A DNA stretch of 64,000 bases from Candidatus Nomurabacteria bacterium GW2011_GWE2_34_25 (GTDB taxonomy: Bacteria > Patescibacteriota > Minisyncoccia > Phycocordibacterales > UBA9973), in the NCBI GenBank assembly GCA_000990325.1, contig LBPS01000008.1, forward strand, positions 97-64,096. The letters run 5' to 3'. This document shows, in pieces, positions 30,384 through 57,035 of the stretch. The notes beneath the pieces were generated by a model. That model saw nothing but the letters and a program-made list of their open reading frames with translations. It was not told the DNA's origin and made no database searches. Position 1 is the first letter of the stretch. Every line of letters begins with the position of its first letter. A program made the translations under genes and the position numbers.

Positions 30384-30701
30384 TTAGTTTAGCCAAAGTC
30401 TGTAGGTTGATGTAATTGTTTCAATAAGGTACTCGTCCTCGTTAATTTTTAAGATCGATACAACTGGACTTGTTATTCCAATACCTCTTTTTTGTCTTAG
30501 TGGGTTGGGATTGTCAATTTCTCTGGTTTTTCTGATTGGCATCCCGGGTCTTATTGGAACGTATAAATCTAACTCAATGATTTTACCAACCTTTGTTTTT
30601 GATTTTTTACCTGGTTTAATGCCGAGCTTTTCAATTTTTGCCTTTGATCCAACCTCTCCTAGTTTTTCAAGGTAGCTACCTGAATTTTCATAACTCTCCA
30701 T
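30384..30701 (-). CDS. Hypothetical protein
   Basis: A 105-aa ORF with a K-rich segment. It sits between terminators and has a plausible promoter. No recognised motif. Confidence 0.4.
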   Translation of the reverse strand: MESYENSGSYLEKLGEVGSKAKIEKLGIKPGKKSKTKVGKIIELDLYVPIRPGMPIRKTREIDNPNPLRQKRGIGITSPVVSILKINEDEYLIETITSTYRLWLN

Positions 30702-30765
30702 AATTCCTCCGTTTTTAACAATTTAACATTTGTACAATATCTATTTTTAATCTAATATAATATAC

Positions 30766-31947
30766 GTGAATAGTCAACAGCTTAAGAAAATAGGGGTACC
30801 AGACAAGCCAGGGGTTTATTTTTTCCGTAAGGACAAAACTATACTTTATATAGGTAAGGCTACTTCGTTGCGGGATAGGGTAAAGAGCTATTTCTCAAAG
30901 GATATCATCGTTACCAGAGGGTCACATATATTAGATATGACGGTAAAAGCGGATAGGGTAGAATGGCAGGAGACGGATAGCGTTCTTGAATCTCTTATTT
31001 TAGAGGCAAATCTTATAAAGAAATTTAAGCCGAAATACAATACTAAAGAGAAGGATAACAAGAGCTTTAATTATGTTTGTATAACCAAAGAAAAGTTACC
31101 CAAAATTTTAATAGTTCGTGGTAGAGGAATGGATAAAAAGTTATATAGCAAAGTCTACGGTCCATTCCCAAATGGTCAGCAACTTAAAGAGGCAATGAAG
31201 ATTATTCGCAGAATTTTCCCATATTTTGACAATGATTCGTTAAAAAGGAATAATAGGGAATTTTACAAACAAATAGGACTAATTCCAGAAAAAGAATTTC
31301 AAGAAAATATAAAGAATATTAAGCTCTTATTTGAAGGAAAGAAGAAAAGTATTGTTATAAATCTTAAAGCTAAAATGGCAGCATTTTCAAAATCAAAAGA
31401 TTTTGAAAATGCTGCCAGAATTCGAGACCAAATATATGCCTTAAATCATATAAATGATATTTCCTTAATAAAAGAGGAAATATATGGAAGTCCGACTTCC
31501 ATATTTCGTATTGAAGCTTATGACGTGGCTCATATGGGAGGCAAGAATATGGTTGGAGTTATGACTGTTGTTGAGAATGGTGAAGTCAATAAAAGTGAAT
31601 ATAAGAAGTTTATTATCAGAACTCAAAGTGATGCCAATGACACAGGCGCACTCGAGGAAGTTCTTTCTCGTAGATTGCGTCATACAGAGTGGGGTTTGCC
31701 TAGTCTAATTGTTGTCGATGGTAGTACCGCCCAAGTAAATGTAGCTAAGAGAGTATTAAGTAGGTACCAGTTTGAGATACCAATAGTCGGAGTGGTGAAA
31801 GATGACAAACATAGACCAAAAGTGATAATAGGTAATGAAGAAATAATTAAAATATACAAAAAGCAGATCCTTCTTGCCAACAGTGAGTCACACAGATTTG
31901 CTATAACTTTCCATAAACAAAAGAGAAATAAAAGTTTTCTAAAATAG
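30766..31947 (+). CDS. uvrC: Excinuclease ABC subunit C, compact form (GIY-YIG nuclease + UVR domain + RNase H-like domain, lacking the C-terminal HhH)
   Basis: PGVYFFRKDKTILYIGKATSLRDRVKSYF (GIY-YIG), YGPFPNG, FENAARIRDQIYAL (UVR), and a C-terminal RNase H-like endonuclease region (EAYDVAHMGG). Confidence 0.85.
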   Translation: MNSQQLKKIGVPDKPGVYFFRKDKTILYIGKATSLRDRVKSYFSKDIIVTRGSHILDMTVKADRVEWQETDSVLESLILEANLIKKFKPKYNTKEKDNKSFNYVCITKEKLPKILIVRGRGMDKKLYSKVYGPFPNGQQLKEAMKIIRRIFPYFDNDSLKRNNREFYKQIGLIPEKEFQENIKNIKLLFEGKKKSIVINLKAKMAAFSKSKDFENAARIRDQIYALNHINDISLIKEEIYGSPTSIFRIEAYDVAHMGGKNMVGVMTVVENGEVNKSEYKKFIIRTQSDANDTGALEEVLSRRLRHTEWGLPSLIVVDGSTAQVNVAKRVLSRYQFEIPIVGVVKDDKHRPKVIIGNEEIIKIYKKQILLANSESHRFAITFHKQKRNKSFLK

Positions 31948-31970
31948 ATTATTGTTGATATAATATATTT

Positions 31971-32969
31971 ATGATAAAAGTTGGGGTTATACGTGGGGGG
32001 ACAAGTGGTGAGTACGAAGTATCTCTTAAGACAGGGAGCAATGTACTTTCTCATTTGAGGGGAGATAAGTTGAGTCAAACATATAAATCTATCGACATTC
32101 TTATCGATAAGGATGGAACTTGGCATATAAGTGGCAAGCCTGTATCGACAGCAGATGTATTCCATTCTGTGGATGTTATCTTCAATGCTTTGCATGGCGA
32201 CTTCGGAGAAGATGGCAAAGTTCAGCAAATGCTTGACCAGTGGAAGATTCCATATACTGGCTCAGGAGCTTTCGCTTCTGCCTTAGGATATAACAAAGTT
32301 TTAGCCAAAGAACAATTTAGTAGACTTGGAGTGAAGACACCCAATCATCTTGTCGTGTCTCAGTATCAAGAAGAGGATGGTGATTTTGAAACTTATGCTG
32401 TAAATGTTGCAAAGCAAATTCACGACAAGTTAGTACCTCCTTGGATAGTGAAGCCTCTTTCTGGTGGTTCTTCTGTTGGTATGAGAATGTGTAGGACTTA
32501 TCCAGAATTAATATCTGCTTTTATGGAAGGGGTAAACATGGAGACCGATGTTCTAGTAGAAGAACTTATAGAAGGGAAAGAAGCGACAGTAGGGGTTATA
32601 AATAATTTTCGTGATAAGGCTGTTTATGTGCTTCCTCCGATTGAGATAAGGATTCCTAAAAGCAAAGATTTTTTTGATTTTGAAGCAAAGTATACTGGAG
32701 TGTCAGAGGAAATTTGCCCTGGCAATTTCTCTCGTAGTGAAAAAGAGGAGCTCGAAAGACTAGCAGGAATTATTCATACAGGACTCAATCTCGATCATTA
32801 TTCTAGAAGTGATTTCATTGTACATCCGAAGAAGGGTATTTATGCGCTTGAAGTGAATACTTTACCAGGGCTAACCAACGAATCACTTGTTCCCAAAATG
32901 CTCAACGCTGTTGGGGCGACTGTCCCTGAATTTATTGATCACATTATTAAACTTGCATTAAAAAGGTAA
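31971..32969 (+). CDS. ddl: D-alanine--D-alanine ligase (copy 1)
   Basis: N-terminal VGVIRGGTSGEYEVSLKTG and ATP-grasp motifs (EELIEGKEATVGVI, LEVNTLPGLT). Confidence 0.85.
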   Translation: MIKVGVIRGGTSGEYEVSLKTGSNVLSHLRGDKLSQTYKSIDILIDKDGTWHISGKPVSTADVFHSVDVIFNALHGDFGEDGKVQQMLDQWKIPYTGSGAFASALGYNKVLAKEQFSRLGVKTPNHLVVSQYQEEDGDFETYAVNVAKQIHDKLVPPWIVKPLSGGSSVGMRMCRTYPELISAFMEGVNMETDVLVEELIEGKEATVGVINNFRDKAVYVLPPIEIRIPKSKDFFDFEAKYTGVSEEICPGNFSRSEKEELERLAGIIHTGLNLDHYSRSDFIVHPKKGIYALEVNTLPGLTNESLVPKMLNAVGATVPEFIDHIIKLALKR

Positions 32970-32970
32970 T

Positions 32971-33798
32971 ATGAAAATTTCTATTTTAGGTTATGGAACT
33001 TTTGGACAAGCTATTGCAACTCGTTTGATAATAAACGAACATGAAATTTTAATAAATGAAGTAAAAGGGAGCGACATGATACTTGTGGCAACTCCTTCGT
33101 ATAGAGTGAAAGAGGCTCTCTTAGAGCATAAAGATTTTATTATAAATCAGAAAATAATAATTTGTTCTAAAGGTTTTAATAAAGATGGGGATCTTATATC
33201 AACTGTCTTAGAAAAGGAATTCCCTCATAATTCAATTTATTTCTTATACGGTCCAACTTTAGCCGAAGGATTAATAAATGGAGATCTTTCAGCCATGGTC
33301 TTAGCTGGTGGAGCTGGTAAAGAAGAAATAAAGAAACAGATTGAATCACAGAATTTGAAAATTGAGTTAAGTAACGATGTAGTTGGAGTTCAAATAGGTG
33401 CTGCCATGAAAAATGTGGTAACTATTTTTGTGGGGATAGCTGAAGGAGCATCGTATGGCCAGAATACTCAAGCCTATATTTTTACTAAAGGATTACAAGA
33501 AATCCAGAAGTTGGGGGTTTCCTTGGGAGCAGAACCCAATACTTTTATGGGGTTAACATGTTCAGGGGACTTGTCTTTACGCTCTAGGAATCGTCTACTT
33601 GGGATTGAGATTGGCAAAGGGAGAAAGATAGAGGATATTTTAGCTAAGAAAAAATATATGCTGGAAGGATTGGCCACAATTAAAAATCACAAAAATATTA
33701 GTAGTAAACTCGGAGTAGAGTTACCGTTTGTTGATATTTTATTTTCGATAATTTTTGAAGGTGCCTCTATTGAGAAAGGGATAAGAAAGATTATATAG
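32971..33798 (+). CDS. gpsA: NAD(P)H-dependent glycerol-3-phosphate dehydrogenase (compact)
   Basis: Rossmann N-terminus ISILGYGTFGQAIA and the GpsA signature GAAMKNVVTIFVGIAEG...FMGLTCSGDLSLRSRNRLLGIEIGKG. Confidence 0.8.
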   Translation: MKISILGYGTFGQAIATRLIINEHEILINEVKGSDMILVATPSYRVKEALLEHKDFIINQKIIICSKGFNKDGDLISTVLEKEFPHNSIYFLYGPTLAEGLINGDLSAMVLAGGAGKEEIKKQIESQNLKIELSNDVVGVQIGAAMKNVVTIFVGIAEGASYGQNTQAYIFTKGLQEIQKLGVSLGAEPNTFMGLTCSGDLSLRSRNRLLGIEIGKGRKIEDILAKKKYMLEGLATIKNHKNISSKLGVELPFVDILFSIIFEGASIEKGIRKII

Positions 33799-34363
33799 TT
33801 TCTGTATTTTCTAATTTGTTTTCTTTTCGAAATAAATCTATCACAAAGAATGTGATCTTAATTCCGTTACCAGATAGATTAAAGAGTATTGCCACAGTGA
33901 AAAGTGACAAAGCCAGACTATTACTCAAAAAAGAAACAGCAATGGCGACAATAGCAGAACCAACAGGGAAGAGAATATGCATGTTAGCATGTTCATTTTC
34001 TTTTTTGGTGAAAGGCATATTTTCTATTGTCCCAGATTTTATCACATAGTTACGCATTTTAAACAGTGTAAGCCCAATGAAAATAATATTTAAAGCAAAG
34101 AAAATAATAGCAGTTTCAGAATTTACATATTGTCCCAAGAAACGAGAAGAGAAAGGTACAAGAGCAACAAAGAAAAGAAAAATTCCATTTAAATTTGAAA
34201 ACTTGGTATCAATATTTTTAGCAAGGACTGAAGCTATGAGGTGATGCGATCTCCAGTAAGTGAAAAGTAAAGAAAAACTAAGTAAATAGCTTAAGAAGAG
34301 GGGTGCCATTTCTACAAGTGTATTTAAGAGATGTTGTTCTGTGACTAATCCTGTATATGCCAT
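33791..34363 (-). CDS. Hypothetical integral membrane protein (about 5 TM helices)
   Basis: Hydrophobic segments throughout. No diagnostic motif recognised. Confidence 0.4.
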   Translation of the reverse strand: MAYTGLVTEQHLLNTLVEMAPLFLSYLLSFSLLFTYWRSHHLIASVLAKNIDTKFSNLNGIFLFFVALVPFSSRFLGQYVNSETAIIFFALNIIFIGLTLFKMRNYVIKSGTIENMPFTKKENEHANMHILFPVGSAIVAIAVSFLSNSLALSLFTVAILFNLSGNGIKITFFVIDLFRKENKLENTETI

Positions 34364-34421
34364 CGGAAAGTTGATCTAATCTTGATTGTTTCATATTTTT
34401 TATTATACCATATGAATTATT

Positions 34422-34956
34422 TTATTTAAATATCTCATCTACAAGAGTTAGAACCCCTTTTCTTGTTTTATTCGAGAAGGGGATTATAAGGTGGTCGCCA
34501 ACCACTTTTTTAATTTCTGCCATTTTTTTATGATAGTCGGATTGCTTTAGTTTATCTATCTTATTAGCCACGATTATGAAGTCTTTATGATGATTTCTAA
34601 GCTCGTTTAGCATGAGTATATCTTTGTCTGTCATGCCGACACCAGCATCGATAATCATCACAACTTTCTTTTGAGTATATATAGAGTTAAAAAGATATGA
34701 ATCTATAAGTTCTCCTATTTTCTCACGACCCAAGCCTGAAGCACGAGCGAAGCCGTATCCAGGCAAGTCTACCAAGTAGAAGGCATTATTTATCAGGAAT
34801 ATATTTATCTCTTGAGTTCTTCCTGGGAAGGAACTAGTACGGGCTTGATTTACCAACGTTCGAGCGCCCTATAAAGGCTATCTGGGGTATACCATCGGCT
34901 AGTATCTCATCATCTCCGACGATACCCTTCATGAATTTTGTAGTTGTTATTAACAT
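34422..34956 (-). pseudogene. engB: Ribosome-biogenesis GTPase EngB/YsxC with an internal deletion and frameshift between the G1 motif and switch region
   Basis: An upstream frame encodes MLITTTKFMKGIVGDDEILADGIPQIAFIGRSNVGKSS, then hits a stop. The main ORF resumes at ARTSSFPGRTQEINIFL...LVDLPGYGFA...NKIDKL. The ~10 residues between GKSS and ARTS are missing, and the frame changes. Confidence 0.75.
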
Positions 34957-37129: not shown

Positions 37130-38623
37130 ATGGCACTAAATAAACCAAACAAAATCCAGATTATTAAGTATGCTCCACCACCACCAGATCTTCCAACTTT
37201 AGGTAGGGTAGATCCGAGTGATGTGACCTTTATCGGCCGTACGAATTATGTAGCTTCTTTAGAAGAAAAGAAGTTCGTTTTCGGATTCAAGCGTATTGAT
37301 CGTCGCCGTCATTTATACATTATTGGAAAGTCTGGCGTTGGTAAGTCAAAGCTTCAAGAATTGATGATTCGTCAAGATATAGCTTACGGACATGGTGTCT
37401 GTATTATTGATCCTCACGGAGAGCTTATAGAAGACATCTTGAATTTTATTCCAGAGGAGCGTATTGAAGATGTCTGTATTATTGATCCAGGAGATATAGA
37501 GTTCCCATCTTCATTTAATCCACTTGCAAATATTGATCCAACGTTCAAGCATCAACTAACCCAAGGATTGATCGAAGTTCTCCGTAAGCAATTCGGTGCC
37601 AACTGGACTCCACGTTTGGAGCACGTTTTCCGTTTTACAGTCCTAGCTCTTCTCGATTATCCGTTTGCAACAATGCGTGGGATGATTAGTATGCTTACTG
37701 ACAGAAATTATCGTCAGAAAGTAGTTGAATATATCGAAGACGACATGGTCAAACGCTTCTGGGCAATAGAATTCGCGGACTGGTCTGAGAAGTTCGATAC
37801 GGATGCCATCATCCCTTTGGTGAACAAGCTTGGGCAATTTCTTTCTGACCCAATGCTTCGAAATATTTTCGGACAAAAAGAAAACAAAATAGACCTCGAA
37901 GAAATAATGAACGGACAAAAGATTCTCTTAATCAATCTTTCCAAAGGTAAGATTGGGGAAGAGAATTCATCATTCTTCGGAGCCATGTTCCTAACGAAGA
38001 TTAAGCAAGCGGGTATGGCTCGTGCCAAGCTTGAGCCGAAAGATCGTGCGGACTTTTACTTATATGTCGATGAGTTCCAGAACATTGTTACAGATACTTT
38101 TGAAAACATTCTTTCCGAAGCTCGTAAGTACGGATTGAACCTTATTGTTGCCCACCAGTACGTCGCTCAGCTTTTACCTAAAGTTCAGCAAGCAGTTTTA
38201 GGAAATGTGGGATCTATTATTACCTTCCGTGTGGGAGGAGATGATGCGACGAAGCTCAAGCCAGAGTTTGCTCCAGTTTTCGACGTGAAAGATATGATCA
38301 ACTTAGGAGTGGGGGAATTCTATGTCAAAATGACGATAGATGGAGAGAGTTATGATCCATTTTCTGGAGAAACTTTACAAGTACTCCCCGCTACTCATCC
38401 GTCTTATAGACAAAGAATCATAGAAGCTTCTCGTCGTAAGTACTCCATACCAGCAGGTGATGCACAGAGGCTCATTGCCGAAGAAGAAGCTACTATCATC
38501 CGCAGCGCCCAAGAGAAAGCTGCTATTACAGGAAATAAAAAAGAAGAAAAAGACGAAGACGCCAATGACAATAAAAAAGAAGAAATAAAGAAAGAAGAAA
38601 AAGGAGGGGAACCATTAATATAA
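37130..38623 (+). CDS. Soluble TraD/TrwB/VirD4 (T4SS coupling protein)-like P-loop ATPase, paralog 1
   Basis: Walker A HLYIIGKSGVGKSKL, Walker B-like FYLYVDEFQNIVTD, the RKYGLNLIVAHQYVAQL motif, and no TM helices. It is paralogous to 42952-45225 and has a charged KE-rich C-terminus. Confidence 0.75.
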   Translation: MALNKPNKIQIIKYAPPPPDLPTLGRVDPSDVTFIGRTNYVASLEEKKFVFGFKRIDRRRHLYIIGKSGVGKSKLQELMIRQDIAYGHGVCIIDPHGELIEDILNFIPEERIEDVCIIDPGDIEFPSSFNPLANIDPTFKHQLTQGLIEVLRKQFGANWTPRLEHVFRFTVLALLDYPFATMRGMISMLTDRNYRQKVVEYIEDDMVKRFWAIEFADWSEKFDTDAIIPLVNKLGQFLSDPMLRNIFGQKENKIDLEEIMNGQKILLINLSKGKIGEENSSFFGAMFLTKIKQAGMARAKLEPKDRADFYLYVDEFQNIVTDTFENILSEARKYGLNLIVAHQYVAQLLPKVQQAVLGNVGSIITFRVGGDDATKLKPEFAPVFDVKDMINLGVGEFYVKMTIDGESYDPFSGETLQVLPATHPSYRQRIIEASRRKYSIPAGDAQRLIAEEEATIIRSAQEKAAITGNKKEEKDEDANDNKKEEIKKEEKGGEPLI

Positions 38624-38662
38624 TTACTGATTACAAATTACTAATTAATAATTTAAAAAATT

Positions 38663-40306
38663 ATGAAAAAGATTTGTGAACATTGCCAGAAAGAATTCAT
38701 TATTACTGATATAGAGAAATCTTTAAGTGAAAAGATTGGACTAGAATTATCTACCGTCTGTTCAAGGTGTCTTTTAAAACAGCAGTTGTCTTTTTGGTTA
38801 TTTGGTAAATTTCGTAAAAGTAAATCTGATTTATCAGGTGAGAGTTTTATAACTGTATTACCAGAAAGTCGTTATCCACTTTACTCACTAAAGGAATGGT
38901 ATAGTGATGCTTGGGATGCGATGGATTACGGAGCGAAATACAATCCAAGTGAATCATTTTTTAAACAACTACAATCTCTTCAAGAGAAAGTTCCTCACCC
39001 TCATCAAAATGGAATTAATAATACAGGATGTGATTATTGTGATGATGTTTGGAGTTGCAAGAATTGTTATTTAGCTCGATCTATGGTTGATTGTGAAGAT
39101 CTTTTATATTCTTACCGAAACATTAAGGTTAAAAATTCTATAGATGTAGCTATATGCTTTAGTTCCGAGAGATGTTTTTGTTCTCTTAATTGTATGAATT
39201 CATATAAACTTTTCTATTCTAGAGATTCAAAAGATTGCATAGATTCATATTTTCTTTTTGATTGTCGCAACTGCCAGAATTGCTTCATGTGCTGTAATTT
39301 AAGAGGGAAGAGTTATTGTATAGAGAATGTACAGTATACAAAAGAAGAATACAATGAAAAACTAAAAGATTTTAATTTAGGTTCATATTCTCAAATTAAA
39401 CTGTTTAAAGAACATTTTGAAGAAATGCTTAAAAATGTAGCAATCCATAGATTAAATTTTAATCTTAAAACTTATAATTCTACTGGTAACAATTTATTAA
39501 ATGTAAATAATTGTATAAATTGTAATACTATTTCTGATTCAGAAGATTGTGTTAATTGTACAAGAGGTACTAAAACCAAATCCTCTTTAAATTATGCTGG
39601 ATGTTTTGAAGGAGAGTTGCTAGGTAGTTGTAGTGGTTGTGTGAATGCATATAATTTGAAATATTCTTCTTGGTCTTCGTCAAGATATTCTGAATATTTG
39701 GATTTGTGTATTGACTGTGAATATTGTTTTGGCTGTGTGGGGCTTAAGAAGAAAAAGTATTGTATTTTAAACAAGCAATACACCAAAGAAGAGTATGAAA
39801 AATTAAAAGATGAAATTATAAATAAAATGAAAGAAGACGGAGAGTATGGCAAGTTCTTACCTTACTCTATGAGTCCAGGACCATTCAATTTCTCAACTAG
39901 TTATTTATATTTCCCCAATACGACCAAGGAAGAAATTTTGAAATTGGGTGGTTATTGGCAAGACATAGATGAAAGCAATATAGAGGGTATGTCCACAAGT
40001 GAATTGCCTGACTCTATAGATGATGTGGATGAAAGTATTTGTACCAAAGCATTGATTTGTCCTCTGACTGGTTGGCGTTTCAATATTTCCAACAATGAAT
40101 TAGGATTTTATAAACAGTACAATATTCCACTTCCTCGTAAGCATTTTGATGTAAGAATAAAAGATCTGTTGAAATATTCAACTGTACTAGAAACAACTCC
40201 ATATAATTGTTATTATTGCAAAAACAAAATAGAAGCTTTTTATCCGAGTGAATGGGGGTACAAGAATATTGCTTGCGAAAGTTGTTATCAACAGAATTTA
40301 AACTAA
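38663..40306 (+). CDS. Cys-rich repeat protein with terminal zinc ribbons (paralog 3 of 4, more divergent)
   Basis: 547 aa. N-terminal CEHCQKEFII...VCSRCL, internal CRNCQNCFMCCNLRGKSYCIENVQYTKEEYNEKL and CEYCFGCVGLKKKKYCILNKQYTKEEYEKL repeats, and a C-terminal ...NIACESCYQQNLN. It starts 40 bp after the ATPase at 37130. Confidence 0.75.
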   Translation: MKKICEHCQKEFIITDIEKSLSEKIGLELSTVCSRCLLKQQLSFWLFGKFRKSKSDLSGESFITVLPESRYPLYSLKEWYSDAWDAMDYGAKYNPSESFFKQLQSLQEKVPHPHQNGINNTGCDYCDDVWSCKNCYLARSMVDCEDLLYSYRNIKVKNSIDVAICFSSERCFCSLNCMNSYKLFYSRDSKDCIDSYFLFDCRNCQNCFMCCNLRGKSYCIENVQYTKEEYNEKLKDFNLGSYSQIKLFKEHFEEMLKNVAIHRLNFNLKTYNSTGNNLLNVNNCINCNTISDSEDCVNCTRGTKTKSSLNYAGCFEGELLGSCSGCVNAYNLKYSSWSSSRYSEYLDLCIDCEYCFGCVGLKKKKYCILNKQYTKEEYEKLKDEIINKMKEDGEYGKFLPYSMSPGPFNFSTSYLYFPNTTKEEILKLGGYWQDIDESNIEGMSTSELPDSIDDVDESICTKALICPLTGWRFNISNNELGFYKQYNIPLPRKHFDVRIKDLLKYSTVLETTPYNCYYCKNKIEAFYPSEWGYKNIACESCYQQNLN

Positions 40307-40311
40307 ACATA

Positions 40312-40345
40312 CACAGGTCTGACCTGTGACAGGTTGCATTTTTAT
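40312..40345 (+). terminator. Hairpin cacaggtc-tg-acctgtg followed by T-run
   Basis: It sits directly after the stop of 38663-40306, with gcattttta downstream. Confidence 0.55.
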
Positions 40346-40424
40346 TATATTGTGTTATAGTTTGAGCAAAATTTATCTTTGAAATATAACCAAAATCACC
40401 CACAAAGGAGGGGTTATTCACCAT

Positions 40425-41285
40425 ATGAGACAATTAAAGATTACAAAATCGATCACAATGCGCGAGAGCGCTTCCCTGGACAAGTATTTACAAGAGATTG
40501 AGAAAGAAGAACTTGTAACTCTTGAGGAAGAAGTGGAGTTAGCCCAGCGGATAAAAAAGGGTGATCGGGTAGCACTGGAGAAACTTACAAGAGCAAACTT
40601 GCGTTTCGTAGTTTCTGTAGCTAAACAGTACCAGAATCAGGGATTAAGTTTACCCGACCTTATCAATGAAGGTAATCTGGGATTGATTAAAGCCGCCGAG
40701 AAGTTTGATGAAACCAGAGGGTTCAAATTTATTTCCTATGCTGTATGGTGGATTCGTCAATCCATTTTGCAGGCATTGGCCGAGCAATCCAGAATTGTGC
40801 GGTTGCCTTTGAATCAACTTGGTTCGTTGAACAAAATCAACAAGGCATTTTCCAAACTGGAACAGGAGTATGAACGAAAGCCGACACCCGATGAGCTTGC
40901 CGAATCATTAGATCTCCCTGCCGACAAAGTGGCTGATACCCTTCGTATTTCAGGCCGTCATATTTCTTTTAATGCTCCTTTTGTTGAAGGAGAAGATAAC
41001 AGTTTGTTGGATGTTTTAATCAACAACGATTCGCCAAATGCTGACAGAGGTTTAATGATGGAGTCATTGGCCAGAGAAATTAAACGAGCTTTGGCAACTT
41101 TAACTGAACGGGAAAGCGATATTATTCGGTTCTTCTTCGGAATTGGCTGCCAGGCAATGACCCTTGAAGAAATTGGTGAACGTTTTGGACTAACCCGGGA
41201 ACGTGTACGTCAGATGAAGGAAAAAGCAATTCGCCGGTTAAGACACAGCTCAAGAAGTAAATTATTAAAAACATATCTCGGATAA
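40425..41285 (+). CDS. Compact 286-aa primary-type sigma-70 factor lacking region 1.1 (Bacteroidetes sigma-A-like)
   Basis: [11 protein letters not shown]... N-terminus, region 2 ([27 protein letters not shown]) and region 4 ([20 protein letters not shown]). The length and N-terminus match what I recall of the unusual Bacteroidetes primary sigma. The gene is visibly more G+C-rich than its neighbours. Confidence 0.8.
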
Positions 41286-41296
41286 CGAGATATTAG

Positions 41297-41330
41297 GAGG
41301 GATTCTCACTACATGGGAATCCCTCTTTTT
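41297..41330 (+). terminator. Rho-independent terminator gagggattc-tcactacatg-ggaatccctc + TTTTT
   Basis: A perfect 9-bp stem followed by a T5 run, right after the sigma gene. Confidence 0.75.
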
Positions 41331-41398
41331 GTTTACAAATTCAAGGAGAGTGTTACAATTATATTGTAAAGGTCGTAGTTAGCTTATCTATATATTTT

Positions 41399-41704
41399 AT
41401 GGTTTTTATATATACAACGTGTGAAAATATGGAAGAGGCAAAGAAACTAGGCGGACTTATAATAGATCAGAAGATCGCCGCTTGTGTAGATTTCTGGTCA
41501 ATATCATCTTGTTATAATTGGGAGGGGGAGTCAAAATGCGTAGAACAAGCCATGCTCCTTATTACAACCTTTGAAGCGAAGCTTGATGCTGTGAATCAGA
41601 TAATTTCTGAGAATCATACTTACAGTGTCCCTCTTATTGCTGGGGTCGATGTTCGTCGTATTAATCACCCTTACAAAGAATGGATGATGAAAGAAATAGT
41701 TTAA
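41399..41704 (+). CDS. cutA: Divalent-cation tolerance protein CutA
   Basis: About 100 aa with AACVDFWSISSCYNWEGE...HPYKEW, the CutA1 signature. Confidence 0.75.
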   Translation: MVFIYTTCENMEEAKKLGGLIIDQKIAACVDFWSISSCYNWEGESKCVEQAMLLITTFEAKLDAVNQIISENHTYSVPLIAGVDVRRINHPYKEWMMKEIV

Positions 41705-41705
41705 A

Positions 41706-42137
41706 ATGCCTGACCTTACTAATCAAAAGAAAATATTAATCTTCGGCGTTTTCGATGGTGTCCACGAAGGACATCTTTCTTTTATAAATGAAGCGAGGGA
41801 GCAAGGCAGTCAGCTTGTAGCTATTGTCACTCGCGATAGTATGGTAGAGAAGATGAAAGGTAAGCTTCCTAAATATAATGAAGTAGAAAGAATCAAAAAT
41901 CTTTTAGAAATTCCCGAAGTCGATAGGGTACTCTTGGGCGACTTAGATATGGGTACATATAATATTTTAAAAGAAGTTGCTCCTGATATTGTATTCCTAG
42001 GTTACGATCAGAATGAATTATTTGATGATTTGAATTTAAAAATAAAAGAAGGGTATTTAAATAATATAGAAATTTTACAAGGCAGTCCCCACAAAGCAGA
42101 TACTCACCATTCTTCAATTTTGAATAAAAAAAGTTAG
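41706..42137 (+). CDS. Cytidylyltransferase-fold nucleotidyltransferase (archaeal RibL-type FAD synthase-like)
   Basis: The HxGH motif GVFDGVHEGH, and IVTRDSMVEKMKGKLPKYNEVERIKNLLEIPEVDRVLLGD...PDIVFLGYDQ, which resembles the RibL/GCT family. Confidence 0.6.
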   Translation: MPDLTNQKKILIFGVFDGVHEGHLSFINEAREQGSQLVAIVTRDSMVEKMKGKLPKYNEVERIKNLLEIPEVDRVLLGDLDMGTYNILKEVAPDIVFLGYDQNELFDDLNLKIKEGYLNNIEILQGSPHKADTHHSSILNKKS

Positions 42138-42276
42138 TTTACATATTTCAGTTATGACTGAGATATGTATTTTAAATAAATAGATAAAAAGATAGCCCGG
42201 AACAGTATGTCGTCCGGGCTAAACTCAATTAAAAAACATTACGAACTTATCGAACGTTTCGGCATGCAGTAGTGAA

Positions 42277-42738
42277 TCAAGTAATACTGTTTCCGCCGGC
42301 CAAATTTTCCATGCAAGCGCTGGTCATCAATGCTTTGAGTACATGGCATCCAGATCCATCCCTCAGGTTAGTAGCAACGGCATCATCCACGAAAGTTGTA
42401 AAATTAACACAATTATTACTTGCCAAAAATTGAACAGGTGGTTTGGTTTGTAACACCATAGAAGAAATAACTACACCAGGAGATAGTTCTTGGTTAGCAG
42501 TTTTTAGGATCACTTCATTCGCAACAGTAGCATTTTCCACTCTGGCAGTCGTCTGTGGTAATACTACAACCGGTAAGCTTATTTCCGGAGAAGCAACGGT
42601 CATATCCACTACTACAAAGTGCTTAGCAGGTGGAGATGAATTTGAAGAGCTTGCAATCCCTTTGTTATTTGAAAGCAACACAATACTGGTCACAATCATA
42701 ATAACAAGCATAAGAAAACGACTGAACGATTTCTTCAT
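42277..42738 (-). CDS. Hypothetical secreted protein (signal peptide), G+C-richer than genome background
   Basis: An N-terminal hydrophobic signal segment (MKKSFSRFLMLVIMIVTSIVLL) and no recognisable domain. Confidence 0.45.
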   Translation of the reverse strand: MKKSFSRFLMLVIMIVTSIVLLSNNKGIASSSNSSPPAKHFVVVDMTVASPEISLPVVVLPQTTARVENATVANEVILKTANQELSPGVVISSMVLQTKPPVQFLASNNCVNFTTFVDDAVATNLRDGSGCHVLKALMTSACMENLAGGNSIT

Positions 42739-42878
42739 GTTAATGATTTTAAATGTTAGAAAACAGTACATAATCATCAGTAGATTTCCTAGGTCTACGT
42801 GTATTATGATTATTTATTTTTTCAAATTAAGGATATCATATCTATATAATTCTTGTCAAATATTTTTGGTGGATAAAT

Positions 42879-42909
42879 GTTTAGGGTTTTGCGAAGCAAA
42901 ACCCTAAAC
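42879..42909. promoter_or_regulatory. 31-bp perfect palindrome gtttagggttttgc-gaa-gcaaaaccctaaac upstream of the second ATPase gene
   Basis: A 14-bp perfect stem with a 3-nt loop, located about 45 bp upstream of the start at 42952, between divergent genes. Confidence 0.5.
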
Positions 42910-42951
42910 CCTTTTGTAAATTTATAATTAAAGGTATAATATATTCATATC

Positions 42952-45225
42952 ATGGAAAATGAAATTCCACACAATCGTGACATAACATACTTTGCTAAGA
43001 CGAATTTTCGTAATAGTGACAATATTTTCGGTATTAAGCGTAAGGATCGTCGTCAGCATATGTACATTCTCGGAAAGTCAGGTACTGGTAAGTCTGTTTT
43101 ACTCTCAAATCTAATTGTTCAAAATATCCAAAATGGTGAAGGTGTTTGTGTTGTCGATCCTCACGGAGAGCTTGTCGAAGAAGTCCTGCATCTTATCCCA
43201 GAACACAGAAAGAAAGATGTTATTTATTTCAATCCTGCCGATACTGAATTCCACATAGGGTTCAACGTCATCCAGCTCGATGATCCAAAGTACAAGCACT
43301 TGGTAGCTTCAGGACTCATGGGTATCTTCACGAAGATTTGGGCCAATGCTTGGAGTTCTCGTATGGAGTACATTTTGAACAATGCGATTCTAGCCCTGCT
43401 CGACACCCCAGGTACGACTCTTCTCGGTATTCCACGTCTCTTAGTCGACAAAGATTATCGTCAAATGATCATTGGTAATTTAAAAGATCCAGTTGTGAAA
43501 GCTTTCTGGGTTCACGAGTACGAGCAGTGGCGTGAGCAGTTCAGAAATGAAGCCATCGCGCCGATTCAGAACAAGGTTGGGCAATTCCTCTCCACTTCGA
43601 TTATTCGTAATGTTGTCGGTCAGCCGAAGTCAACGATAGATATTTTCAAAATAATGAACGAAGGCAAGATCTTCCTTGTCAATGTTTCCAAGGGGCGTAT
43701 CGGTGAGGACAATTCAGCTTTGCTTGGAGGTATGATTATTACCAAGATCCAGCTTGCCGCCATGGAGCGTGTGCGTATTCCCGAGGACGAACGTAAAGAT
43801 TTCTATTTATATGTCGACGAATTTCAAAACTTTGCGACTGATTCATTTGCGAACATTCTCTCAGAAGCTCGTAAGTATCGTTTGAATCTGACAGTTGCTC
43901 ACCAGTACACTGCTCAACTTGAGAACAAAGATGGATCGAAGGTTCGTGATGCTGTCTTCGGTAACGTCGGAACCATGATTATTTTCCGTGTTGGTGCGGA
44001 CGACGCAGATTTTCTTGAAAAAGAATTTGAGCCAGAATTCATGGCTCAAGACTTAGTAAACTTACCGAACTTTCACGTTTATCTAAAGCTTATGATAGAT
44101 GGTATTACTAGTCGTCCCTTTTCTGCTTCGACTCTTCCTCCCCTTAAAGTTGATCCGACTTCAGGTGTGAAAGATGCAATCATAGCTTCTTCTCGTAAGC
44201 TTTACACTCGCTCTCGTCAAGAAGTTGAAGATGAAATCTCCAGATGGAGTGGAATGCTTCAAGTGGGTGATGGAGAAGCAAAGTACAAGGCTGACTGTTC
44301 TAATTGTGGCAAGGTTACAATGGTTCCTTTTGAACCTCAGGAAGGCAGACCTGTTTATTGTAAAGAATGTATGTTCAAGATAAAGAGTGGCGAGCTCAAG
44401 CCCGATAGTGGTTTTATTGCTTCTCGTTCTTCTCGCCAAGAAGAGAAAGTTTCAACTGCACCTTTGGCTGCTTTAGGTATAGAATTTGCTGTGACTGATA
44501 CAAACTTTAGAGTTTCAAAGAATCAAGAGCAGACGAATCCGAAAATACCAGAAAGAATTGACAGAAATATTAATACAAATAATAATACCAATAACAATCA
44601 TTACAATAATCATCAGTCGGATACAAATAGGAATCATTTTGTGAAAAATGAAAGGAAGCATTCAGGACCCTCACCACTTTTGAAAGGGTTATTGCAAAAG
44701 ATTGGTATGGGTAATAATAAAGGAGAAGCATCTTCTGTCCCCGAAGCAACAGAAATTAAAAAAGAAGTTCCAGCTCCTATATCTCTCTCTTCACTTAAGA
44801 AAGACACGATAAAAGATGTGAGGAAAGAATTCGTAGCCCCTGTCAAAGAAGCGACAGAGGAAAAGAAAGCATCACTTAAAGACTTGCTTGCAAAGACCGT
44901 AAATCATCATCACGAAGAGCATATTGTCGAAGTCGCCTCGAGGGCGGCAGTCAGAGAAGGCGGGAAGGAAGAGGAAGTTCCTGAAGTTAAAGAAGTAATT
45001 CCTGAAAAGAAAATTGAAATAATAGAAACAAAACCTGAAGTTAAAGAAGAAATATTTATACCTAAAGTAGAGGAAGTCCCTGTAGCACCTCCTTCTGTAC
45101 CATTGCCTCCTAAAAAAGAAGAGATAAAATCGGGTGGAGATGATATTGCGGATTCTCTTGCTTGGCAGAAACGTCAAGTGAAGAAGGAAGTTCCAGAAGA
45201 TGTGCTCCGTAAAGTCTTAGAATAA
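42952..45225 (+). CDS. Soluble TraD/VirD4-like P-loop ATPase, paralog 2, with C-terminal zinc ribbon and long low-complexity tail
   Basis: Walker A HMYILGKSGTGKSVL, FYLYVDEFQNFATD, and RKYRLNLTVAHQYTAQL. A C-terminal CSNCGKVTMVPFEPQEGRPVYCKECMF zinc ribbon is followed by N-rich and KE/P-rich low-complexity sequence. Confidence 0.75.
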   Translation: MENEIPHNRDITYFAKTNFRNSDNIFGIKRKDRRQHMYILGKSGTGKSVLLSNLIVQNIQNGEGVCVVDPHGELVEEVLHLIPEHRKKDVIYFNPADTEFHIGFNVIQLDDPKYKHLVASGLMGIFTKIWANAWSSRMEYILNNAILALLDTPGTTLLGIPRLLVDKDYRQMIIGNLKDPVVKAFWVHEYEQWREQFRNEAIAPIQNKVGQFLSTSIIRNVVGQPKSTIDIFKIMNEGKIFLVNVSKGRIGEDNSALLGGMIITKIQLAAMERVRIPEDERKDFYLYVDEFQNFATDSFANILSEARKYRLNLTVAHQYTAQLENKDGSKVRDAVFGNVGTMIIFRVGADDADFLEKEFEPEFMAQDLVNLPNFHVYLKLMIDGITSRPFSASTLPPLKVDPTSGVKDAIIASSRKLYTRSRQEVEDEISRWSGMLQVGDGEAKYKADCSNCGKVTMVPFEPQEGRPVYCKECMFKIKSGELKPDSGFIASRSSRQEEKVSTAPLAALGIEFAVTDTNFRVSKNQEQTNPKIPERIDRNINTNNNTNNNHYNNHQSDTNRNHFVKNERKHSGPSPLLKGLLQKIGMGNNKGEASSVPEATEIKKEVPAPISLSSLKKDTIKDVRKEFVAPVKEATEEKKASLKDLLAKTVNHHHEEHIVEVASRAAVREGGKEEEVPEVKEVIPEKKIEIIETKPEVKEEIFIPKVEEVPVAPPSVPLPPKKEEIKSGGDDIADSLAWQKRQVKKEVPEDVLRKVLE

Positions 45226-45234
45226 TTTATTTTT

Positions 45235-46626
45235 ATGATTATAAAAAGAATCAAATATTCCGTAATTTTTATTGTAATGCTTTTTGCTTTTTCACACTTA
45301 GCACAAGCTAATCTTGAAATTACCGAAGTGAATTATAATCCAGCAGTTAAAGCTAATCATCTTTGGATAAAAATTTTCAATAATACAACCGATGAGGTTG
45401 ACCTTACTATGTGGTCTGTATCAGATTATGATGGTACTTCATGGCACCATCATGCTATTAATGCAGATGGTTCTTCATTTTTATCTCCCAACTCGTATGC
45501 GATAGTGGCGAAAGCATCTTCTACCACTATTGATGATTTTAAAAGTAAAAATCCTGAAATTTCAGATATGTTATTTTATGGTAATTTAACTATTGAAAAC
45601 GAGGGGGTGTTAGGACTTAGCAATGACAAAAAGACCATTATTAGCAATAAATCATATGGTGGAGCTATTGTACCCTCAGATACAAATTCGGACAGCAATG
45701 CCAGTGATACAAGTAGCACCAGCACAAGTGGAAGTGTTTCAAGTTCTAGTTCATCAAAAGAAGAAACCAAAGTTTATAACATAACAACGAAGATTATTTC
45801 TCCGAAAATTGTAACTGCAGGAGTACCTTTCACTCTTGATCACAATACAACAGGCATAAAGAAGGAAAAGATTATCCTAGGTAAATTCGTTTGGAATTTT
45901 GGAGATGGTATGAAAAAAGAGGGAATTACTTCCGATCCATTTTCTTATATTTATCAGTATCCAGGTGAGTATGTTTTAACTCTTTCATATTCTGGTTCTT
46001 CTTTTAGTGCAAAACCAGATGCGACCGATAGGCTTATAGTAAAAGTTATCTCCTCTGGTATTGTTATAAGTTCAGTTGGTACATTTGCCGACCCGTATAT
46101 AGAAATAGAGAATAATTCAAACTATGAAATGTCTATGAGTAATTTTATTATAAAAGGCAGTGTTCATTATTTTATAATTCCAAACGGTATGATGATACTT
46201 CCTAAGAGCAAATTAAAATTATCCCCTAGAATCACTGGTTTTGATATCAATGATTTGACTTCTATTTCTATTATTGACACTTCTGGGCAGATTTTCGCGA
46301 CTTATCCAAACAAAGTAGCATCAACAATAAAATATTCAACAAGTAAAAATATAAATAATGTCACGTCTGAAAATATTGTAAAGTCAGATATTGCCACCGA
46401 CAATCAGAATGGAAATCCTAACAACGTTATAGATTTGAATAACCTTGGTGTCAGTGCTGTAAATTCAAAAGAGTTTAATTTAAGCAAAGGGGCTTATGCT
46501 TGGTTTGGGCTTGCTGTAATTCTTATCATTGGTATTGCAAGTGTAATTCTTATTCGTCGTAAGGAAGAAATTCCTGACTATGTGGAAGAGACGATAAGTG
46601 CCAAAGACATAACGATAATAGAGTAG
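45235..46626 (+). CDS. Secreted, C-terminally membrane-anchored surface protein with two lamin-tail domains (LTD) flanking a PKD-like domain
   Basis: A signal peptide; LTD-like ITEVNYNPAV...VDLTMWSVSD...SYAIVAK; the PKD signature FVWNFGDG...YIYQYPGEYVLTLS; a second LTD-like segment (YIEIENNSNYEMSMSNFIIKG); and a C-terminal TM helix followed by RRKEE. It starts 10 bp after the ATPase stop. Confidence 0.7.
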   Translation: MIIKRIKYSVIFIVMLFAFSHLAQANLEITEVNYNPAVKANHLWIKIFNNTTDEVDLTMWSVSDYDGTSWHHHAINADGSSFLSPNSYAIVAKASSTTIDDFKSKNPEISDMLFYGNLTIENEGVLGLSNDKKTIISNKSYGGAIVPSDTNSDSNASDTSSTSTSGSVSSSSSSKEETKVYNITTKIISPKIVTAGVPFTLDHNTTGIKKEKIILGKFVWNFGDGMKKEGITSDPFSYIYQYPGEYVLTLSYSGSSFSAKPDATDRLIVKVISSGIVISSVGTFADPYIEIENNSNYEMSMSNFIIKGSVHYFIIPNGMMILPKSKLKLSPRITGFDINDLTSISIIDTSGQIFATYPNKVASTIKYSTSKNINNVTSENIVKSDIATDNQNGNPNNVIDLNNLGVSAVNSKEFNLSKGAYAWFGLAVILIIGIASVILIRRKEEIPDYVEETISAKDITIIE

Positions 46627-46648
46627 CTAGTCACATAGCCACAAGTTA

Positions 46649-46669
46649 GCCACAAGTCCGACTTGTGGC
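46649..46669 (+). terminator. Hairpin gccacaagt-ccg-acttgtggc (shares the AAGTCCGACTT core with the hairpin at 7276)
   Basis: A perfect 9-bp stem with a ccg loop, 23 bp after the LTD gene stop. Confidence 0.5.
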
Positions 46670-46756
46670 TAGAATATAGACAAAGTAACATTAAAACTGT
46701 AAGCTTAATTTATAATTATAATATAAAGACTCCAGCAAGGCTGGTAAAATAATAAA

Positions 46757-48421
46757 ATGGAAACAAAGACTTGTCAAAACTGTAAAAATGACTTCATAAT
46801 TGAGCCAGATGACTTTTCTTTCTATGAGAAAATGAAAGTTCCTGTACCTAAAATTTGTCCAGATTGTCGCTTTAAAATGAGGGCAATGTGGAGAAATGAG
46901 ATGAGTATGTATTCAGGACGAAAGTGCGGTTTATGTGGCAAAAGTGTATTATCTATTTACAATCTCAAATCCCCATTTACAACATATTGTTATGAATGTT
47001 TTTATTCTGAAAAATGGAGTCCCAAAGATTATGCAACTCTATACGATAAGTCACGACCATTCTTTGATCAAATGGGGGAGTTTTTAATTAAAGTTCCTAA
47101 GATAAATTTAGGTATTTCTACTGGAGATGGACCAAATATAAATAGTGAATATGTGAATATGGCTGGAGGATGCAAGAATTGTTATCTTGTTTTTAATACA
47201 AGTCCTGCTGAAGAATTACTTTATTCTAGGGGTGTAAAGAGTGGTATTTTTTCTTCTGACATTTATTTTGGAGTGAAGTTTGAGAACTGTTACGATTGCG
47301 TGAGTATTCAAGAATCAGCCAATGTTTTCTGGGGACAAAACATTATGGGCTGTGTAGATTCCTATTTTATTTTAAATGGTAGTGGTCTCACGAATTGTTT
47401 TGGCTGTGTTAATTTAAGGAATAAAAGTAATTGTTGGTTTAATGAGCAATTAACTTCCGAAGAATATAAAACAAGATTGGGTGAAGTTATGGGTAGCTAT
47501 TCAAAAATATTAGAAGCTCGCAAGAAATTTGAAGAATTTTGTTTACAGCATCCACATAAAGAGAACAATAATTTAAAAACGATAAATTCTGTGGGGGACT
47601 ACTTAACTGAATGCAAAAATGTTGTAAATTCTTTTGAAGTGGCAAAATCAGAAGATTGTCGTTATATTTTTTCATCTAAAATGATTAAGGATTCTTTGGG
47701 AACAACTGGATTTGGGACAAAATCTGAAAGATTACTTGAAGTTGTTGCGACTGGACATTCTAGTAATATTATAGGTTCTTATTGGGCGGAAAATTGTAGT
47801 AATGTAATGTATTCTTTTGATTTGAGAAATTGCCATGATTGTATAGGGTGTGACGCTCTAAAGAATGGTAAATATGCCATTTTTAACAAAGAATATTCAA
47901 AGGAAGAATACGAGGAATTAAAGGCTCATATTGTTAAAGAGCTTACAGAACAGGGGATACATGGGCTCATGATGCCAGTAATTATCGCTCCATTTGCATA
48001 CAATGAAACAATTGCTCAAGATAATTTCTCACTAACCAAAGAGGAAGCATTGGCCCAAGGCTATAGGTGGGAAGATGATATACAGATGACTAAGGGCAAG
48101 GATACAATACAGCTAGATGACATAGAAGATAATATCAAAGATATTAGAGATTCTATAACAAGTGAAATATTGAAATGCATCTCTTGCGAAAGGAATTATA
48201 AGATTACGGAGCAAGAGCTACTTTTTTACAGAAAAATGGTCCTACCTATTCCTCGTCAGTGTTTCTATTGTCGTCATCAGGATAGAATAAAAAGGCGAGG
48301 TCCATATAAATTCTGGGATAGGAAATGTGATCATTGTGATAAAGATATTAAAACCAATTATTCACCAGAACGTAAGGAAATAATATACTGCGAGAAGTGT
48401 TATCAGCAGGAAGTAATATAG
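46757..48421 (+). CDS. Cys-rich repeat protein with terminal tandem zinc ribbons (paralog 4 of 4)
   Basis: 554 aa. N-terminal CQNCKNDFIIEPDDFSFYEKMKVPVPKICPDCR...RKCGLCG, C-terminal CISCERNYKI...FYRKMVLPIPRQCFYCR...CDHCDKDIKTNYSPERKEIIYCEKCYQQEVI, and internal CHDCIGCDALKNGKYAIFNKEYSKEEYEEL repeats. Confidence 0.8.
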   Translation: METKTCQNCKNDFIIEPDDFSFYEKMKVPVPKICPDCRFKMRAMWRNEMSMYSGRKCGLCGKSVLSIYNLKSPFTTYCYECFYSEKWSPKDYATLYDKSRPFFDQMGEFLIKVPKINLGISTGDGPNINSEYVNMAGGCKNCYLVFNTSPAEELLYSRGVKSGIFSSDIYFGVKFENCYDCVSIQESANVFWGQNIMGCVDSYFILNGSGLTNCFGCVNLRNKSNCWFNEQLTSEEYKTRLGEVMGSYSKILEARKKFEEFCLQHPHKENNNLKTINSVGDYLTECKNVVNSFEVAKSEDCRYIFSSKMIKDSLGTTGFGTKSERLLEVVATGHSSNIIGSYWAENCSNVMYSFDLRNCHDCIGCDALKNGKYAIFNKEYSKEEYEELKAHIVKELTEQGIHGLMMPVIIAPFAYNETIAQDNFSLTKEEALAQGYRWEDDIQMTKGKDTIQLDDIEDNIKDIRDSITSEILKCISCERNYKITEQELLFYRKMVLPIPRQCFYCRHQDRIKRRGPYKFWDRKCDHCDKDIKTNYSPERKEIIYCEKCYQQEVI

Positions 48422-56936: not shown

Positions 56937-56962
56937 TTTTATGCTATATTATGTACGTTATT

Positions 56963-57033: not shown

Positions 57034-57035
57034 CA

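Follow-up and report, generated by a model that had tools for sequence, protein, structure and literature searches.

Probable transfer of a single Bacteroidota-type sigma-A gene into a Nomurabacteria lineage that retains its own RpoD

The DNA analyzed here is a 64-kb window (64,000 nucleotides of contig LBPS01000008.1, Candidatus Nomurabacteria bacterium GW2011_GWE2_34_25), and its subject is a gene for a 286-amino-acid (aa) sigma factor that lies between cutA and a gene for a cysteine-rich protein, termed Cys1. The window is chromosomal DNA of a species of Nomurabacteria (Patescibacteria, or candidate phyla radiation, CPR), with rpoB, rpoC, dnaG and a native rpoD aboard. Our results indicate, with a probability of about 0.8, that a Nomurabacteria lineage truly acquired the 286-aa sigma gene, and this gene alone, from Bacteroidota and has retained it as an additional sigma factor next to its native RpoD.

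An earlier note, made from the letters of this DNA, had described the product of the open reading frame (ORF) as a primary sigma factor of exactly 286 aa that lacks region 1.1, and the length, the membership in the sigma-70 family and the lack of region 1.1 were borne out by family searches (Table 1). The protein is identical to the 'RNA polymerase sigma factor rpoD' of Candidatus Nomurabacteria bacterium GW2011_GWF2_35_66, and every other full-length 286-aa top match is of Bacteroidota type at 91-93% identity, the named ones coming from Prolixibacteraceae, Draconibacterium, Sunxiuqinia and Gaoshiqia. A comparison of homologues from Bacteroidetes and Patescibacteria had been proposed as a check, and the best non-self matches turned out to be Bacteroidota and not Patescibacteria proteins. 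Identity declines from 93% in Prolixibacteraceae-like sequences to 84% in Bacteroidales, 72% in Hymenobacter and at most 65% in phage or viral sequences, and a search of 5.8 billion proteins returned nothing between 93% and 100%. Two matches with non-Bacteroidota names sit in the typical Prolixibacteraceae context gyrB-LOG-HtrA-rpoD-GH88-hisG and are mis-binned Bacteroidota contigs, and the 84% 'plasmid' matches are Bacteroidales rpoD genes. In a vector search covering phages, plasmids and viral contigs, no phage or viral-contig homologue exceeded 65% identity. In the PDB, no Bacteroidota sigma-A structure was detectable by sequence, the best match being 8x6f_E, labelled SigA. The traits that the note had ascribed to the sigma-A of Bacteroidetes agree with the literature, which describes the absence of region 1.1, diverged DNA-recognition motifs, and promoters with -33 TTTG and -7 TAnnTTTG elements (PMC6847099, PMC9723704), together with mRNAs that lack Shine-Dalgarno sequences (PMC6847099).

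The native primary RpoD is encoded on the same contig. It had been called canonical, and it is indeed full-length, retains region 1.1 and stands in the dnaG-rpoD arrangement within the order rpoB-rpoC-(unknown)-dnaG-rpoD. The named best matches of this 445-aa protein all belong to Nomurabacteria, Paceibacterota or Patescibacteria (79-97% identity), and it is 40% identical to the 286-aa sigma factor. The coexistence of a Patescibacteria-type RpoD and a Bacteroidota-type sigma factor on one contig implies that the organism has kept its housekeeping sigma factor and possesses another one besides.

At the DNA level, the closest relatives of the sigma ORF are Bacteroidota loci L170 (85.7% identity; synonymous divergence, dS, 0.87), L168, L178 (84.9%; labelled groundwater metagenome) and L172 (84.7%), so that the copy differs by at least 14% of its nucleotides from every sampled Bacteroidota gene. 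In 189 of 200 bootstraps, a neighbour-joining tree placed it within a Prolixibacteraceae-like subclade, its terminal branch being the longest. On the donor side, rpoD in Bacteroidota is preceded by an HtrA-like protease gene and usually followed by GH88, and never neighbours cutA or the nucleotidyltransferase gene found next to cutA in the window. L172 derives from ANAN16-1_SAMN03202997 and the Nomurabacteria contig L001 from ANAN16-1_SAMN03203005; judging by the record prefix and the nearby BioSample numbers, both would belong to one sample series, and the aquifer samples that yielded Nomurabacteria thus apparently contain Prolixibacteraceae-like Bacteroidota as well.

Two further groups of homologues were observed in these searches. 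Many IMG/VR viral contigs (L083-L162), some longer than 200 kb, encode 285-286-aa sigma factors that can be aligned over their full length with Bacteroidota sigma-A (44-65% identity), which suggests that large Bacteroidota phages possess a host-type primary sigma factor in a version of their own. Moreover, the metagenome-derived Bacteroidota sigma-A proteins P0001-P0004, P0006 and P0020 (312-446 aa) contain internal tandem duplications and outscore true orthologues in HMMER searches, with scores above or near the self-match. The duplications most likely arose artificially during assembly, when strain variants were collapsed.

To define the extent of the acquired DNA, 70 related Patescibacteria loci with 10-kb flanks were fetched via Cys1 as anchor and searched by tblastn with all local proteins. 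No sigma-70 family gene was found within 10 kb in any of the 70 loci with a Cys1 homologue. In six relatives (L013, L014, L015, L018, L020 and L049) the gene order is (Nramp)-ATPase1-Cys1-cutA-nucleotidyltransferase-...-ATPase2, with Cys1 and cutA adjacent and, in these relatives without the sigma gene, the cutA start 75-105 bp past the Cys1 stop. The protein identities to the window are 97% for ATPase1, 84% for Cys1, 95% for cutA, 77% for the nucleotidyltransferase and 93% for ATPase2 in L013 (Nomurabacteria GW2011_GWD2_36_14). The absence from the 70 loci and the adjacency of Cys1 and cutA in the six relatives point to a gain of the sigma gene rather than a loss. The insert is bounded by the Cys1 stop codon (40304-40306) on one side and by TTTGTTTACAAAT..TGTTACAAT on the other, where native sequence begins again at about 41328, ahead of the cutA promoter. 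A blastn comparison with 25 Bacteroidota loci confined the donor homology to the ORF and 2 nt on each side. The alignments thus indicate that only about 1.02 kb is foreign and that the donor-derived sequence is limited to the ORF ±2 nt. Horizontal acquisition of a Bacteroidota-type sigma factor, one of the alternatives that the note had offered, is therefore upheld by the 91-93% identity to the best non-self homologues, the nested position in the DNA tree and the absence from the 70 Patescibacteria loci.

The note had also proposed a larger unit, namely a G+C-rich island at 40310-42780 comprising the sigma gene, cutA, the nucleotidyltransferase and a secreted ORF, recombined between the two flanking ATPase/Cys-rich modules, and such a multi-gene island is very improbable, being refuted by the empty sites of the relatives. 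What speaks for it is the position of four genes between two paralogous modules, and a G+C content of sigma and cutA somewhat above that of Cys1. The composition of the segment is nevertheless no outlier: its G+C content is 38.0% against 34.9% for the window (81st percentile of same-size windows, standard deviation 3.0%), and its tetranucleotide distance lies at the 62nd percentile. The estimate by eye of low 40s against about 30% holds for the sigma gene (41.9%) compared with Cys1 (30.4%) and fails for the flanking ATPase genes, which have 40.9% and 40.8%. Furthermore, cutA and the nucleotidyltransferase gene share 95% and 77% identity with their counterparts in the sister species and keep the same order in the six relatives; being syntenic in relatives without the sigma gene, they are native. 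The modules, which had been suggested as direct repeats for recombination, are old paralogues with 47% and 30% aa identity whose DNA has no better match in common than a stretch of 132 nt at 75%, and they flank cutA and the nucleotidyltransferase gene even in the sigma-less relatives. The absence of cutA and the nucleotidyltransferase gene beside any Bacteroidota rpoD likewise speaks against their joint arrival.

The sigma ORF itself does deviate in codon usage. Its G+C content at third codon positions (0.394) is the highest among 33 larger ORFs tabulated, the next being 0.367, in synonymous codon usage it stands farther from the host than any other of the 53 ORFs compared (z -2.5), and its codon score is -1.256 compared with -1.003 ± 0.072 for 31 host genes. 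The donor loci have 39-42% and the donor rpoD genes 40-45% G+C; donor and recipient are thus similar in composition, which renders the foreign DNA invisible to a G+C or k-mer scan. The case also calls for caution in such scans, since the visually striking 'island' is mostly native DNA.

The note had listed a chimeric assembly or binning join as a further alternative, in which an assembler joined a Bacteroidota fragment into a Nomurabacteria contig. Prolixibacteraceae-like Bacteroidota do occur in apparently the same sample series (L172, L001), and other entries of this sigma type with non-Bacteroidota names are mis-binned contigs. However, the exact sigma protein was found on 21 contigs in the same gene context, and in the loci from seven datasets (L001-L007) the sequence spanning the two junctions matches the window at 99.98-100% identity for up to 16.4 kb. 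The datasets with the junctions include an ENA re-assembly, NCBI GCA_003487725.1, JGI 3300025000 and 3300001242, and Logan SRR6487834 and SRR3309327, so that both junctions are identical, at contig level, in separate ENA, NCBI, JGI and Logan assemblies. The foreign stretch amounts to one ORF ±2 nt, bordered left and right by syntenic CPR DNA; a mis-join should have carried donor flanks along, and none are present even though the donors' 100-nt leader is nearly invariant. Typical donor sequence would be expected as well, yet the copy differs by at least 14% of its nucleotides and has 16 private residues, and the junctions share no repeat able to mislead an assembler. With the junctions reproduced at 100% identity in independent contigs around an ORF-precise foreign segment, a chimera is very improbable and close to refuted. 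A scan of the metagenome_contigs collection gave no match for the empty-site allele and none for the occupied-junction control, although JGI contigs with the junction exist; these contigs are thus absent from the collection, and the scan carries no information on either allele.

The L001 locus is 99.98% identical to the window over 16.4 kb and only 96% over 30.5-34.4 kb and 92.7% up to 34.8 kb, with small alignment breaks at about 34355 and 34843 in L001-L003. As L001 differs elsewhere, at least two strain backgrounds carry the insert. The divergence at 30501-34843 points to strain-level recombination or to an indel-prone stretch beside an otherwise clonal region.

Examination of the sequences around the ORF revealed that its expression signals are of recipient type. 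In the Bacteroidota donor clade, the 100 nt upstream of rpoD are nearly invariant and contain the TTTG...TATATTTG promoter and no Shine-Dalgarno sequence; none of this conserved leader or of the TTTG/TAnnTTTG promoter is present in the window copy. Instead, the window copy is preceded by a predicted host-style extended -10 element and a strong Shine-Dalgarno sequence. Both motif types are enriched upstream of genes in the window, with 20 TGnTAnnnT matches observed in its upstream regions against 7.7 ± 2.6 expected and 10 Shine-Dalgarno motifs against 2.0 expected, which implies that the signals of the sigma leader are recipient-type. The native cutA promoter is of the same extended -10 style (TGtTACAAT). 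On the downstream side, the ORF is followed by an intrinsic terminator with a folding free energy (dG) of -24.8 kcal/mol (z -6.7), none of 200 shuffled sequences being as stable. Its T-run abuts the cutA promoter, which is intact after the insertion and conserved in the sigma-less relatives. Promoter, Shine-Dalgarno sequence, ORF and terminator form a self-contained unit whose insertion left Cys1 and cutA undisturbed.

Further elements of the leader were noted. The octamer TATCTTTG lacks a properly spaced -33 TTTG, and it is one of three TAnnTTTG matches in 3.8 kb of upstream regions, where 2.8 are expected (not significant); it may serve in autoregulation or have arisen by chance. The small hairpin past the Cys1 stop is possibly the Cys1 terminator or the end of the insert, and no source sequence was found for it. 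As for the donor leader, it is nearly invariant among L008-L011, L169, L170, L172 and L178 while their ORFs differ by up to about 17% of nucleotides (dS about 1), which indicates that the non-coding leader is under stronger constraint than synonymous sites.

The substitutions in the acquired copy were then compared with those among its Bacteroidota orthologues. Relative to the donors, non-synonymous divergence (dN) is 0.042 and dN/dS about 0.03, compared with 0.009 and 0.007 for Bacteroidota pairs at similar dS. The protein differs from the Bacteroidota majority at 22 positions, 16 of them private (found in 0 of 111 close homologues, which themselves have a mean of 0.36 private residues each and a maximum of 4). 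The private changes are conservative, with a mean BLOSUM62 score of +0.56 against -0.34 ± 0.40 for random non-synonymous changes (P ~0.015), and none falls into residues 50-131 (region 2), where 4.5 are expected (P ~0.005); region 4.2 has one change, I264M. There is no stop codon or indel in the 861 nt, and the length equals that of the donors. This pattern argues for relaxed but continuing purifying selection, with the reservation that part of the branch may lie in an unsampled donor or intermediate. Because region 2, which mediates core binding and -10/-7 recognition, is unchanged, promoter specificity should remain Bacteroidota-like, and the 16 private, mostly conservative substitutions elsewhere may have arisen under relaxed constraint or as an adaptation to a core enzyme foreign to the protein. 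With regard to age, the flanking genes of the sister species show dS values of 0.8-1.4 to the window, which places the gain after that split; codon usage, in which the copy is no more host-like than the donors, gives no estimate of residence time.

On this basis, the following course of events is proposed. A sigma ORF from a Prolixibacteraceae-like member of the Bacteroidia would have entered the Cys1-cutA spacer, with the donor leader exchanged for host-style signals; our guess at the entry route is uptake of environmental DNA followed by illegitimate recombination. The native RpoD holoenzyme would transcribe the gene as its own unit from the extended -10 promoter, and the strong terminator would isolate it from the cutA promoter downstream. 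The acquired protein may then act as a supplementary, alternative sigma factor that binds, or competes for, the core polymerase of Nomurabacteria and directs transcription from promoters resembling the Bacteroidota -7 element.

Several observations weigh against this account. The junctions show no target-site duplication, inverted repeats or junction repeats, and thus no visible transfer mechanism; no integrase or transposase was found among the neighbouring genes, and a tRNA scan found none within 4.5 kb of the insert, the nearest being 4.7 kb away. An Rfam scan at the insertion site gave no match. The 116-bp leader and the terminator yielded only chance-level short matches in the window, the 70 Patescibacteria loci and the 25 Bacteroidota loci. 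Bacteroidota-type promoters (TTTG-N17-21-TAnnTTTG and TAnnTTTG) occur at chance level in the window and its upstream regions, a count of little power, as Bacteroidota control loci likewise show no enrichment. The sigma-A of B. fragilis, studied by Vingadassalom et al. in 2005, reportedly binds the E. coli core enzyme without initiating transcription with it; activity with a foreign core enzyme therefore cannot be assumed. Finally, the codon usage of the copy has not ameliorated toward the host, and part of the long branch may thus have arisen in an unsampled donor or intermediate, which weakens the case for selection in the recipient.

Two other histories accept the transfer and differ in what preceded or followed it. 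The ORF might have been domesticated in an unsampled intermediate that uses Shine-Dalgarno sequences (a phage, a mobile element or another CPR lineage), with the whole 1.02-kb cassette landing in the window afterwards, which is compatible with a retained extra sigma factor after arrival. The leader and terminator that match neither donors, the 70 Patescibacteria loci nor the rest of the window, the long branch (the nearest donor sampled lies at a dS of 0.87 or more) and the Bacteroidota-type 285-286-aa homologues on viral contigs would all fit such an indirect route; the best viral or phage homologue is however only 65% identical, the 5.8-billion-protein search yielded no candidate of 93-100% identity, and no mobile-element genes lie nearby. 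We consider this route unlikely on balance, yet the most serious of the alternatives. Less likely still is that the gene is a recently acquired, unused passenger that drifts neutrally and has not yet been disrupted. Its unameliorated codon usage (the least host-like in the window), its restriction to one species-level lineage, an aa substitution rate about 4-5 times that of Bacteroidota pairs at similar dS, and target-promoter motifs at chance level speak for a passenger. Against it stand the significantly conservative private substitutions that avoid region 2 entirely and the freedom from stop codons and indels over the whole length; nor would an unused gene be expected to have its incompatible donor leader replaced by a host-type promoter, a Shine-Dalgarno sequence and a clean terminator. 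Streamlined CPR genomes are, moreover, thought to lose useless DNA fast.

The preferred reading, a single-gene transfer kept as an extra sigma factor, also invites a functional extension, which is improbable: the lineage may have captured the housekeeping sigma factor of the phylum it lives on and may use it to read Bacteroidota-type promoters, for instance on DNA acquired from Prolixibacteraceae-like hosts or in a small host-responsive regulon. If true, the capture would mark Bacteroidota as the host of this group of Paceibacteria and would demonstrate that the core polymerase of a CPR organism can work with a foreign sigma factor. In a bolder variant, for which no test result speaks, the sigma protein would be delivered into the host, given the neighbouring TraD/VirD4-like ATPases.

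Table 1. Features in and around the acquired sigma gene (positions in the 64-kb window)
Feature	Position	Strand	Description
Native primary RpoD	9103-10440	+	445 aa, region 1.1 present, downstream of dnaG
Native module 1	37130-40306	+	TraD/VirD4-like ATPase (37130-38623), Cys-rich Cys1 (38663-40306)
Whole inserted segment	40307-41327	+	about 1,021 bp, right end ±3 nt; from empty-site alignments with six relatives
Small hairpin, 7-bp stem	40312-40328	+	just past Cys1 stop; dG -9.9, z -1.7, weak
Extended -10 element TGtTATAGT	40353-40361	+	host-style; predicted promoter of the sigma gene, read from sequence
TATCTTTG	40374-40381	+	exact match to Bacteroidota -7 consensus TAnnTTTG, 43 nt upstream of sigma start codon
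Shine-Dalgarno AAGGAGGGG	40405-40413	+	strong; 11-13 nt before ATG; none in Bacteroidota rpoD leaders
Bacteroidota rpoD-homologous segment	40423-41287	+	ORF plus 2 nt each side, ungapped, 81-85.7% nt identity
Bacteroidota-type sigma-A gene, intact	40425-41285	+	286 aa; Pfam regions 1.2, 2, 3, 4; no region 1.1
Intrinsic terminator	41295-41334	+	14-bp stem, 5-nt loop, T-run merging into native sequence
Native cutA promoter	41332-41359	+	TTTACA, 16-nt spacer, TGtTACAAT; 10/12 matches, TG present
cutA, native	41399-41704	+	Pfam CutA1, E 3.5e-24; 95-96% aa identical and syntenic in L013, L049
Cytidylyltransferase-like nucleotidyltransferase, native	41706-42137	+	PF01467; 58-77% identical in L013, L014, L015, L018, L020, L049
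Orphan ORF, hydrophobic signal-like N-terminus	42277-42777	-	no family match; no homologue in the 70 loci
Native module 2	42952-48421	+	ATPase2 with CxxC zinc finger (42952-45225), LTD/PKD protein (45235-46626), Cys-rich Cys2 (46757-48421)

Regarding the neighbouring genes, the assignment of cutA to the CutA1 family was confirmed, and the adjacent nucleotidyltransferase gave only a weak FAD_syn match. The minus-strand ORF that had been called secreted does have a signal-like N-terminus; it matches no family and forms no part of a foreign island, and the most plausible view is that it is either native and evolving fast or an orphan. The spacer in which it lies, between the nucleotidyltransferase gene and ATPase2 (42138-42951), is variable across species (the equivalents are 12451-13396 in L013 and 1831-3229 in L049): L013 and L049 have unrelated minus-strand signal-like ORFs and L015, L018 and L049 a different membrane-like ORF there, and these small ORFs show no detectable similarity to one another. 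TraD/VirD4/HerA-like ATPases paired with Cys-rich proteins of about 550 aa are widespread in Patescibacteria (the window and L013-L082). These Cys-rich proteins belong to no Pfam family, save for a weak C-terminal CxxC-x17-CxxC treble-clef finger, and some loci, such as L046 and L067, carry six or more tandem paralogues. Elsewhere in the window, a 556-aa ORF between rpoC and dnaG (5599-7269, 29.6% G+C) has no Pfam match at E <= 1e-5 and is an unusual occupant of an otherwise conserved informational gene cluster. The ORF at 56941-57300 shares sequence with tRNA-Trp (56963-57034) and is abnormal in its codon usage; it is probably no real gene.

Sigma factors belong to the core informational genes, and that of Bacteroidota, sigma-A, is unusually divergent and reads its own type of promoter. 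The locus presented here therefore offers a clean, datable case of an informational gene crossing phyla: it is intact, equipped with recipient-type signals and apparently constrained in a streamlined CPR genome. It also provides a lead on the partners of Nomurabacteria/Paceibacteria, with Prolixibacteraceae-like Bacteroidota as candidate close neighbours or hosts, and on the tolerance of a core RNA polymerase for foreign sigma factors. Transfers from Bacteroidota to Paceibacteria in aquifers have been described, including that of gyrB into a Paceibacteria metagenome-assembled genome (PMC12455944). Our case resembles them in the donor and recipient phyla, in the groundwater setting and in the movement of an informational gene on its own, and it belongs to this known class of aquifer transfers; it differs in that no sigma factor is among the described cases, the word 'sigma' being absent from the main text of that paper, and in that its expression signals have been replaced. 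In the literature that could be searched, no Bacteroidota sigma factor is reported from any CPR genome, an absence that is not proof of novelty.

With classical genomic islands the locus shares the presence of a gene in one lineage and its absence from relatives, whereas here there is no island-scale compositional deviation, integrase or transposase, tRNA target or flanking repeat, and only a single gene is involved. Like phage sigma-70-like factors, which have 285-286-aa representatives on viral contigs, it is a sigma gene outside its usual genome; those homologues are however only 44-65% identical, and no phage genes lie near the window copy. It also resembles the group 2-type sigma factors (RpoS, the cyanobacterial SigB-E and the actinobacterial SigB) as a second sigma-70 with regions 1.2-4 and without region 1.1 beside a primary sigma factor, and the RpoS and SigB models of NCBIfam match it in part, without reaching their cut-offs; in contrast to these factors, it stems from a transfer between phyla and not from paralogy within a lineage, being only 40% identical to the resident RpoD. 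The closest comparison is with Bacteroidetes sigma-ABfr (RpoD-SigA), with which it shares the length of 286 aa, regions 1.2-4, the lack of region 1.1 and 91-93% identity to Prolixibacteraceae-like orthologues, and residues 50-131 (region 2) equal the majority residue of 111 close orthologues everywhere. The differences are that the window copy has a Shine-Dalgarno leader and an extended -10 element in place of a TTTG/TAnnTTTG promoter and a leader without Shine-Dalgarno sequence, and that it carries 16 private substitutions, where a Bacteroidota sequence has 0.36 on average. Furthermore, a member of the sigma-ABfr family would be expected to be the single, essential housekeeping sigma factor of its genome, whereas the window copy stands beside a canonical 445-aa RpoD on the same contig and is thus not the sole or primary sigma factor there. 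The acquired protein is a member of this family by descent and an extra sigma factor by role.

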